From contig NC_088854.1 in NCBI RefSeq assembly GCF_963853765.1, positions 60,016,001 through 60,080,000 on the forward strand: a stretch of 64,000 bases of DNA. The letters run 5' to 3'. Positions 9,901 through 12,586 of this stretch are shown piece after piece. The stretch's first letter is position 1. Every line of letters begins with the position of its first letter. Under the pieces are notes generated by a model that worked only from the letters and a program-made list of their open reading frames with translations, did not search any database and was not told the DNA's origin. The position numbers and the translations under genes are program-made. The stretch is from Magallana gigas (lineage: Eukaryota).

Positions 9901-11235
9901 AGAAATGCCGATAGTATCAAAGACATCTTCAAGTCTGGGGAGAGGAAAGGTGTGTTGTTTTGTTACAGCATTGAGTTTCCTGTAGTCAACAGCAAAACGA
10001 AGTTGTCCGTTCTTTTTCTTGACCATAACTACAGGGCTCTGCCACATGGAAGTTGATTCCTCTATAATGTCTGCATCTAACATTTCCTCCAGTTGTATGT
10101 TTGTTTCTGCATTTACCTGTGGGGATTGGCGGTAAAAACGCTGACGAATTGGATGAGCATCACCTGTTTCAATTCTGTGTGGCTGAAGAGACCACTTATC
10201 CAATTCTTTGAGATCTGATGCAAAGACTGACCTATGTTTTTGGAGAAAAGCATGGAGAATTTGTTTTTGATCACCTGTTAAGTCCGAAGAGGATAGGTCA
10301 AAGGAGATAGGTTCCTTAATGTCCTGCTTTTCTGAAAGGGGTTTGGCACTAGTGGGGGTGTCAAGAGATACTACCATGTTTGAATTAATACAACAAGCTG
10401 ATGCAACACATGTATCTGCTGAAAGAGTAACAGGGTCATCGGTTGGGTTGATGATCTGAATAAAATGAGTGTCATTGTTGATTGTGTCTATCAAGCATTT
10501 AGCACCAACAAGTCCAAGTTCTGGTAAGTCTGGTGATGGTTCAAGGAGAACTGATTGGTCATTGGGGAGGTTTGAAATGAACACCTCTACAGATGTGATT
10601 GACTTTGGATTGATTTTGATAGAATGGGACACACGGGCAATACCTGTGTTAATTTGAAGGGAAAGGACTTGCTCTGAAATGGGGTCTTTGAGAGAAAGAG
10701 TGTTTTGATTAACATCTAAGACAGCTTTGTTGAGTGTTAGAAAATCTAGTCCTAGAATGATGGGATGTTGAAATTTTTCAAAAACTTGGAAAGTGTGAGA
10801 AATAATACAATTTTCAAAAGAGACAGGTAGGGAAAAAGCACCAAGACTGTGGTGTTTCTCACCACCAACAGCCACAGCATCAGTTTCATCCATCGACTGT
10901 AGCTCGTTCCTATCTATACCTAATCTAGTTAAGACAGACGCTGCTACACAAGAGATACTTGCACCCGTGTCGACCAATGCTCTTATGGGATGTCCATAGA
11001 TTTCAATGCTAACAGTATTTTTCATAATAGGCATGATCAAATTGACATTGCTGAATGATTTCTTACGTTTTGATTTGGTTTTGGGTTTTGAGGTAGGTTT
11101 TTGGTTAGATCTTGGGGGATGGTTAGGTTTGGAATCATTAGAATGGATATTCGAAGCATGCTTAGTATGAGCTGTTAGCAGGGATGAGTCATTGTTAGCT
11201 TGGTGCCTATCCTCAAGAAGGATAGGCGCGTGCCC
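6929..11235 (-). pseudogene. pol: pol: aspartic protease, RT, RNase H, integrase (GPF motif), C-terminal chromodomain
   Basis: LVDTGAS (protease); LRFAVDYRKLN, YVDDILVFS (RT); TTDASG, ISEREFLAI (RNase H); HLG...CDSC, HMDILGP, VIVSDRG, ERMN (integrase); WDGPFYI. Frameshifts near 9850, 7720, 7390 and 7245, and TGG>TAG at 8391-8393. The chromodomain FFVEKLL...VKWLG...TWELEE ends at TAG 6929-6931. Confidence 0.92.
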
Positions 11236-12586
11236 CTAGTATGATGAGTTTTGGAAGGTGGGCTGGTTAGAGTGGTTGTTAGATTGCTGGTGGTTAGTTG
11301 TCACTTGTTGAGATGTATGTGGTGGTGTTGGATTTGTGCGACAGACTGAGGCAAAATGACGCCAATTTCCGCAGTTGGAACATTTAACATTAAATGCAGG
11401 GCAAGCTGATCTGGAAAAACAGAACTTACCAAATCCGCTGCATGTCTTTCTCCCTCTCCTATTCATGGGTTGGTTCATCGGTTGAAACCATTGCTGCTGG
11501 GGCCAAGGTGAGGGTGGTACCATCCATTGGAAGGGTTGACCGGGTTGGTTGAACTGGGTGGGGTGGCTGAAGGACTGGTTTGGTTGGCTGAAGGACTGGG
11601 CGGGGTGGCTGAAGGTCTAAGCGGGGTTGCTGAAGGACTGGCCGGGTTGGTTCCAAGGTGCCTGGGCCTGGGGTGTTTGGGAGAAGGATTCACGTCCAGG
11701 GTTGTGTTGCTTCCTCTTTTGATTTTGGAATGGTCTCTCTTGTGTGGCTGTTAGAGCACTAATTTCACTCTTAAGTGTCTCCCTTATTGATGTGAGAGAT
11801 TGAATGTCAAAGTCCTGTTTGTTGTCACATTCTAGTTCTTGTTTTGCCAGGTCAACAGCGTGACGTAATTCCTGGAAAGTTTTGGGCCCTTTCGAGATGA
11901 CACATTTTTTATAGTGTTGATTAATCCATTTGTTGTGAATTGGACTTTGTATATTTCTGGGAGGTCATGTCCCAAAGACGTTTTTCTGCTCTTGAGAGGT
12001 AGTCATTGGTTGACTCTCCAGGGTACTGTCTAAGTCCTAGAAGGGACTTTGTTTCCTTATTTGCAAAGCGACTTTTCAAGCAGTCTTTGAATGTTGTAAG
12101 ATTGTTTTTCTGGGCTGGTGATAAGGTTTGGAGCCATGTGGCTGCTTGGCCTTCAAAATTACATCCTATGGCAAGGAGGGCTTCTGAATCGGAAACATTG
12201 TGGAATTTCTGCCAGTTTTCGAGTACAGTTATCCAAAGATGTACATTTTCACTGCCATCAAATTTCTTCAAATTAATTCCTGTGGCCATAATTCTATTTC
12301 TAATCTGGTGTTCTAGTGGTTGATGATCTGTTGATGATTGTGTTATGTGATCCTTAGGGATTTGCTCCTCATCTAAAGTTTCAATTTCTTGATCCTCTGA
12401 TTCAGATGCTGGTGCTTCGGTTGTTGATTGGGGGTGTTGTTCCTCTGAATCAGATGGTGCTATTTCTAGTGTTGATTGGTAATGTTGTTCGTTTGACTTG
12501 GAGGTTTGCACTTATGGTGGTAATGTTTCGTCTTGATGCTGGTTCTCTGTTGATCGCAGGTAGTAGTTGATTGGCTTTGTCTTCAT
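11236..12586 (-). pseudogene. gag: gag (capsid-like domain, Q/S/P-rich repeats, Cys/His zinc-knuckle region)
   Basis: ATG at 12586 (MKTKPINYYLRS), stop at 12512-12514, KKFDGSENVHLW...EGQAATW...LRQYPGES (retrotransposon gag), frameshift near 11980, QSFSxPx repeats with TAG at 11617-11619, CSNCGNWRHFASVC knuckle, terminal TAG at 11236-11238. Confidence 0.88.

Follow-up and report, generated by a model that had tools for sequence, protein, structure and literature searches.

A conserved gag-pol stop codon with a covarying downstream hairpin points to programmed readthrough in a Ty3/gypsy group represented in the oyster genome

A group of Ty3/gypsy elements with a member in the oyster Magallana gigas very probably makes Gag-Pol by programmed readthrough at the stop codon that ends gag, aided by a hairpin downstream of the stop. 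We base this reading on sequence comparison, which began with a single junction in the window (the whole stretch of 64,000 nucleotides analysed here) where a first-pass annotation had pointed out a candidate readthrough signal.

The gag-pol junction and its host element

The gag frame of the window copy lies on the reverse strand and closes with ...QNSSY followed by TAG, with pol in the same frame, as first described. The 8-nt spacer and the 9-bp stem with its TCTTG loop are also found where the first-pass annotation had placed them (Table 1). An added U.G pair can lengthen the hairpin to 10 bp, in which case the loop is 3 nt. The folding energy of the hairpin is -14.4 kcal/mol (z = -5.59), with none of 200 shuffles folding as well, and a helix of -10 kcal/mol or lower that begins at the ninth base follows 14 of the 7,500 stop triplets on the two strands of the window. 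The context UAG-GGG matches the first of the hexamers that make up the type III context of Beier and Grimm, UAGGGV, UAGGUA or UAGGAU (PMC13517186). Beyond the stop the same frame indeed continues into the protease, and it stays open for 467 codons, through the protease into the reverse transcriptase (RT); the 65 codons initially reported have to be corrected, as no in-frame Met comes before codon 68, where there is one. The catalytic Asp of the protease is codon 89. We set aside a probability of 10^-13.6 for the open linker; the stop had been defined by being the nearest upstream of the protease, which makes the figure circular in part.

Table 1. Features of the gag-pol junction and of the element that carries it (window coordinates).
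Feature	Position	Strand	Remarks
Gag-terminating UAG, candidate readthrough codon	11236..11238	-	context UAG-GGG
8-nt spacer	11228..11235	-	GGGCACGC; 5 purines, G first
RNA hairpin	11205..11227	-	GCCTATCCT-TCTTG-AGGATAGGC; 9-10 bp, covarying in relatives
Open in-frame linker, gag stop to protease	11035..11235	-	67 codons before first Met; includes spacer and hairpin
5' LTR	12616..13214	-	599 bp, begins TA, ends CA
3' LTR	3287..3885	-	7 differences from 5' LTR over 599 bp; preceded by purine tract
Target duplication	3283-3286 and 13215-13218		4 bp
TGG stretch, putative primer-binding site	12601..12612	-	3 nt past 5' LTR
gag	11239..12586	-	Retrotrans_gag PF03732, E 1e-5; broken in window copy
CCHC zinc knuckle of gag	11341..11382	-	pattern match; starts 48 codons before stop
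pol	6929..11235	-	protease, RT, RNase H, integrase, C-terminal chromodomain (Pfam); broken
F-type env-like gene	4323..6789	-	Baculo_F PF12259, E 2.3e-8; broken

The junction belongs to a decayed element with env and a chromodomain that spans 3287-13214 on the reverse strand, and whose LTRs and PR-RT-RH-IN order are those of Ty3/gypsy elements (Metaviridae). Both LTRs open with TA, not TG (13214 and 3885 on the element's strand), and the target duplication is 4 bp long. The earlier remark that this copy has other stop lesions was correct, and each of the three genes has been disrupted by stops and frame changes: gag by premature stops at 12514 and 11619 and a frame break at about 11920-11970, pol by frame changes at about 9830-9880, 7720-7755 and 7285-7385 and a stop at 8393, and the env-like gene by a stop at 6429 and a frame change at about 5840-5905. 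In this dead copy the signal survives as a relic; it would be active in family members that are intact. A Pfam search with the zinc-knuckle piece of the window gag gave no match.

The C-terminal half of gag also holds 21-nt repeats rich in Pro, Gln, Ser and Phe codons (11500-11700, reverse strand), the number of which varies between contigs. Acidic, Cys-rich frames flank the element on the same strand (2103-3308 and 13091-13327), so that the element interrupts another coding sequence; our impression is that these frames resemble a DNA-transposon gene, and Pfam returned no match for the flanking frame at 2106-2993. Elsewhere, the window contains a second Ty3/gypsy element (43571-50933, reverse strand) with identical 738-bp LTRs, one open gag-pol frame of 1,706 codons and an extra 199-codon frame before the 3' LTR (44475-45074) whose motifs resemble C2H2 zinc fingers (zf-H2C2_5, E 3.4e-5). 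An intronless frame of 762 codons on the forward strand (16539-18827) has a weak VPS9 match (E 0.009) and is probably a host gene. Our background scan picked up long perfect inverted repeats with helices of 12-24 bp at 19028-19527, 51170-51242 and 54244-54303, which are probably miniature inverted-repeat elements.

Close copies and related proteins

We compared positions 10950-12700 with three oyster contig sets (X1, X10 and X18) and a raw RNA run (X22). The main junction contigs differ from the window at 1 (X1), 0 (X10) and 8 (X18) positions, and none of these differences falls within the junction (11193-11254). The window's premature gag stop at 12514 and the surroundings of its gag frame break differ in contigs of all three sets; the X1 contig shares the internal stop of gag at 11619. 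The X1 and X18 contigs may be alleles and not independent copies, since they include this insertion's own flank. A diverged family was found in all three sets. In X18 it aligns only at the protease start, at the knuckle and over a 62-nt island that covers the stop and the hairpin, with 9 differences that may fall anywhere in the island and a gag tail that is 18 nt shorter. The RNA run yielded 5 reads, none of them over the junction, and is too shallow for expression, splicing or editing.

Related proteins, of which 150 representatives out of 1,215 were listed, have Saccostrea, Magallana, Ylistrum, Mytilus and Mya as their named sources. Five bivalve Gag proteins among the 150 end 25-41 residues past the knuckle start, one of them in NSSY, and one Gag cluster of 35 members has the same end residue in all 15 members listed. 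Counting against a general stop, knuckle and protease lie in one chain in 6 of the 150 listed proteins. Four of these six are Mytilus gene models in which a predicted intron may have skipped the stop. P0067 and P0122, which also have knuckle and protease fused, are ENA predictions and not Mytilus gene models; P0122 has a sense residue at the stop site and then a hairpin-like peptide, as expected either of a sense-codon copy or of a gene call made under another code. About six further listed proteins have gag-like sequence fused to pol without a knuckle, and bivalve gene models make up three of the five whose origin was looked up. The 3' arm of the hairpin leaves a peptide trace at 15 of 50 predicted pol protein starts, compared to 26 of 1,402 background windows; it points to a wider spread of the hairpin, only as a lead, as the motif was picked after the data had been seen.

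The stop codon is conserved in distant relatives

To the window we added the best 80 of 559 metagenome loci and three viral-contig records, making 84 records. Left out were 24 without a protease motif upstream of RT, four that ran off the contig end, and L003, which has a phage-type protease and is unrelated, so that 55 junctions remain. Scanning viral contigs with a single protein brought up no relative, and the nine loci that a degenerate junction pattern picked out in viral contigs were chance matches, none being a gag-pol junction. Two viral-contig records do belong to this retroelement group (L001:2926-2990 and L002:2908-2960).

In this set of 55 (drawn from the best 80 of 559), gag and pol are separated by UAG-G in 15 junctions, by a stop followed by CARYYA in 11 and by a stop in another context in three; the knuckle is in another frame in 16, gag and pol are fused in two, and eight are unclear. 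On inspection, L023, L038 and L039 turned out to be gag-stop-pol as well, and L037 is deleted over the junction. We built a pol phylogeny of 46 rows, with a midpoint root used only for drawing; nine sequences shorter than 200 residues were kept out of it (L021, L039, L043, L048, L049, L054, L055, L068 and L071). The tree splits 28 rows on the window's side from 18 others (support 100/99). Among these best 80 of 559 loci, 27 of the 28 rows on the window's side have an in-frame gag-stop-pol arrangement, none is fused, and L037 is uninformative. The stop is TAG in 24 of the 27, TAA in two and TGA in one; the decayed L023 has a second stop within the loop. On the other side of the tree, the knuckle is in another frame in 14 of the 18 rows, three are unclear, and L053 (1452-1520) reads gag-UGA-CUA-pol, a type II context like that of the fission-yeast elements Tj1 and Tosmo.

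The group members share at most 45% pol identity with the window, and eight loci of the best 80 of 559 (L005, L006, L007, L014, L022, L028, L032 and L074) have a gag frame of 300-524 codons, a single TAG, and then 1,331-1,559 open codons. Because the stop is kept in frame in 27 of 28 rows and these eight loci are otherwise open, the stop was inherited and is not the product of decay. The annotation's reservation that the UAG might be a decayed codon of a fused gag-pol is thereby rejected, and the check it proposed, whether other copies keep the UAG, came out in its favour. A sense codon in place of the stop, named beforehand as the observation that would speak against the proposal, was seen at no DNA locus of the group. 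Of the downstream frames of relatives that were scanned, six of seven have a Baculo_F match. A Chromo match (E<0.001) was found in four of five pol proteins from the window's subclade of nine rows and in neither of two from the other subclade.

Spacing, covariation and length of the hairpin

To compare spacing, we let the helix start anywhere from 0 to 24 nt past the stop and took the best contiguous helix, after six near-identical rows had been dropped. In the window's subclade, all seven UAG-G rows (L004-L008, L014 and the window itself) have their best helix beginning exactly 8 nt past the stop (p=0.003 each), and the same spacing is seen in L002 and L074, and in L023. This confirms the 8-nt spacing in other copies within the subclade. 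Over all UAG-G rows the strict 8-nt start holds in 7 of 13; the other six count against it, as their stems are bulged and the helix begins at 9-14 nt; a second UAG-G subclade shows this pattern. As controls we used 18 stops that are not true gag ends, namely the first in-frame stop upstream in elements that are fused or of the frameshift type; none has a helix starting at 8 nt, and one reaches p<0.05.

For covariation we aligned eight junctions with MAFFT, namely the seven subclade rows and L002; these were picked for showing the hairpin, and L074 was left out. With RNAalifold, this alignment scores -18.17 kcal/mol, and its covariation term is -2.72. Over nine pairs and eight junctions, 71 of 72 cells are paired, and five of the nine pairs show compensatory changes (14 cells), so that the stem covaries between copies; this was among the checks that the first-pass annotation had proposed. 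None of 500 shuffles reached the observed pairing, and slid registers were paired at 24-42%. The near-invariant outer pairs overlap an Ala/Gly/Ser-Pro dipeptide and say little on structure, as protein constraint could account for them. At the base of the stem (alignment columns 11 and 53), the preceding base is C in 7/8 junctions and the following base is A in 7/8. The spacer has 5 purines of 8 in the window and 3-7 of 8 in relatives, and usually ends in CGC. This end and the unpaired C and A may contribute to the signal through their sequence.

The hairpins measure 23, 23, 32, 32, 32, 35, 38 and 41 nt, all 2 mod 3, as are those of L017 (29) and L023 (26); the exception is L074 (30). Their length thus changes in steps of whole codons, which shows a reading-frame constraint and argues that the region directly past the stop is translated. 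Loops range from 3 to 18 nt across relatives. In all eight hairpins, pairing between the loop and the next 60 nt was no better than in shuffles (p 0.17-0.94); being at chance level, this pairing gives no support to an H-type pseudoknot within that distance.

Two types of stop context

Known signals differ in their need for structure: type I (UAG-CAR-YYA, or CARYYA) is a readthrough context that needs none, whereas type III needs a structure that starts at +12, past an 8-nt spacer (PMC13517186). Among the best 80 of 559 loci, nucleotides 9-50 past the stop, an interval chosen after the pattern had been seen, fold at p<=0.05 in 12 of 13 UAG-G rows versus none of nine CARYYA-like rows. The one UAG-G row without a significant fold, L025, is in the subclade with bulged stems. 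This split is the one predicted by analogy with the known signals. Several of the 15 UAG-G junctions in the set of 55 have hexamers outside type III, such as UAGGAA. The two types are interleaved on the tree, with L074 and L075 in the hairpin subclade and L016 and L023 among the CARYYA rows, and this distribution suggests more than one switch of signal type, or recombination. L002 mixes both types, as its UAG-CAUCAG is followed at 8 nt by a perfect 11-bp hairpin.

Interpretation and alternative explanations

In the mechanism that we propose, most ribosomes would terminate at the gag UAG and release Gag. The stable hairpin 8 nt downstream would lie at the mRNA entry channel and delay or bias a small fraction of ribosomes, in which a near-cognate tRNA would supply an amino acid at the UAG. 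Continuation in frame would then yield Gag-Pol, and the rarity of the event would set a low Pol:Gag ratio. We infer that readthrough occurs, its rate and its stimulation by the hairpin; the entry-channel step is modelled on MoMLV and VEEV (PMC13517186). We also lean, with less assurance, towards the view that the lineage reached the MuLV geometry with a plain hairpin and switched more than once between hairpin and CARYYA signals.

An unlikely alternative is that stop and hairpin are conserved and Pol is made by another route (a spliced or internally initiated mRNA, reinitiation, or a bypass like that of Tca2), the hairpin then serving packaging, dimerisation or RNA processing. There are precedents in Tca2 (PMC2194720) and in the internal promoter that drives env in Tor elements (PMC4402516), and 9 of 24 non-redundant junctions, the window among them, place an in-frame Met ahead of the protease Asp. 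The other 15 of the 24 (from the best 80 of 559 loci) have no such Met, which excludes AUG reinitiation as a general route. Against the remaining routes stand the preservation of frame in hairpin length changes, the fixed 8-nt distance between stop and helix, and CARYYA in relatives without hairpins, which makes sense only for termination; the stop is removed by none of the four joints listed, a weak point that draws on contigs and one RNA run.

Much less probable is A-to-I RNA editing that turns the UAG into a sense codon in some transcripts. The amber site of hepatitis delta virus is a precedent, and UAG predominates in the group with a duplex nearby. The conserved helix, however, leaves the stop out, starting 8 nt past it, the three members with TAA or TGA do not fit, and CARYYA members have no helix. 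That the UAG is a decay mutation of a formerly fused gag-pol with the hairpin there by chance is the least credible reading and already refuted for the pol group, for although the window copy carries three or more further premature stops and its frames are broken at several points, the second gypsy element is fused and so are a few related predicted proteins, the stop stays in place across the diverged and otherwise open members, the stem shows compensatory changes, and copy-specific lesions vary between contigs where the junction does not.

Relation to known elements

Among the closest known counterparts of the readthrough favoured here is MoMLV, whose gag-pol signal is of type III, with UAG-G, a purine-rich 8-nt spacer and an H-type pseudoknot from +12 (PMC13517186). 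Like MoMLV, the oyster element has a UAG between the gag zinc knuckle and the protease DTG motif, a G next to it and pol in frame, and its 8-nt spacer places the helix at +12, counting the stop (PMC13517186). Unlike MoMLV, the oyster group has a simple hairpin with variable loops and a moderately purine-rich spacer, and it consists of Ty3/gypsy elements of an invertebrate host, not of Retroviridae. The comparison with MuLV made at first sight therefore stands for the UAG, the 8-nt spacer and the presence of structure, and fails for the H-type pseudoknot, as pairing of the loop with the next 60 nt is at chance level.

A single stop, in frame, separates gag from pol in the Ty3/gypsy element Skipper. 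The same is true of Tj1, Tosmo1-3 and Tcry1, Ty3/gypsy elements of fission yeasts (PMC4600332; 10.1101/2022.12.06.519325), and transposition of Tj1 requires the stop (PMC4600332). Unlike the window element, these use UGA-CU (type II), have no hairpin described in the text available from these sources, lack env and come from non-animal hosts. VdLTRE5 also has an in-frame gag stop (PMC3441728). Tca2 of Candida albicans, a Ty1/copia element, resembles the window in having a stop, an 8-nt spacer and downstream structure at gag-pol, and differs in using UGA and a predicted pseudoknot (PMC2194720). In a yeast reporter, the Tca2 junction taken by itself did not lead to readthrough, and it contained a minor promoter (PMC2194720). 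By analogy, Tca2 is a caution that layouts of stop, spacer and structure can fail in reporters. The TMV-type UAG-CARYYA (type I), also found at the pol-env junction of SIRE1, accounts for the 11 relatives' junctions without a strong hairpin and is absent from the window copy.

Chromodomain-bearing 'ancient errantiviruses' with an F-type env have been described from Cnidaria, Mollusca and Annelida by Chary and Hayashi (2026; PMC13524379), including two oyster elements with env F and a chromodomain, one of about 10 kb with 551-bp LTRs. The window element is like them in its gag-pol-env order, F-type env, C-terminal chromodomain and bivalve host, and we tentatively place it in this clade on these shared features. 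The main text of that paper, in the part available, does not mention readthrough, frameshift, translation, recoding or in-frame.

Implications

Our literature search, mainly of open-access papers, found no readthrough report for invertebrate env-carrying gypsy elements. For the silkworm element Kamikaze, and perhaps also for Tor elements, earlier work has reportedly pointed out a gag stop. In the portions available, the paper on Tor does not mention gag readthrough (PMC4402516), and PMC13517186 mentions neither retrotransposons nor Metaviridae; a 2003 survey is summarised in PMC5009743. Troyka (PMC12440569) proved unrelated.

Type I signals are absent from animal viruses according to PMC13517186, as far as its available text goes; if our reading is true and their hosts are animals, the CARYYA loci found here would be type I signals seen for the first time in animal retroelements. 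Our reading would likewise provide a natural series of covarying stimulators from which to learn what is required of a 3' structure for termination to be biased. As a large lineage of invertebrate endogenous viruses that combines MuLV spacing with a freely covarying hairpin, the group offers a test of whether readthrough calls for a pseudoknot or is served by any stable helix at +12, and likewise of whether type I and type III signals can stand in for one another in animals. For annotation, intact members would carry one in-frame stop by design, and thus risk being miscalled as dead or given false spliced models.
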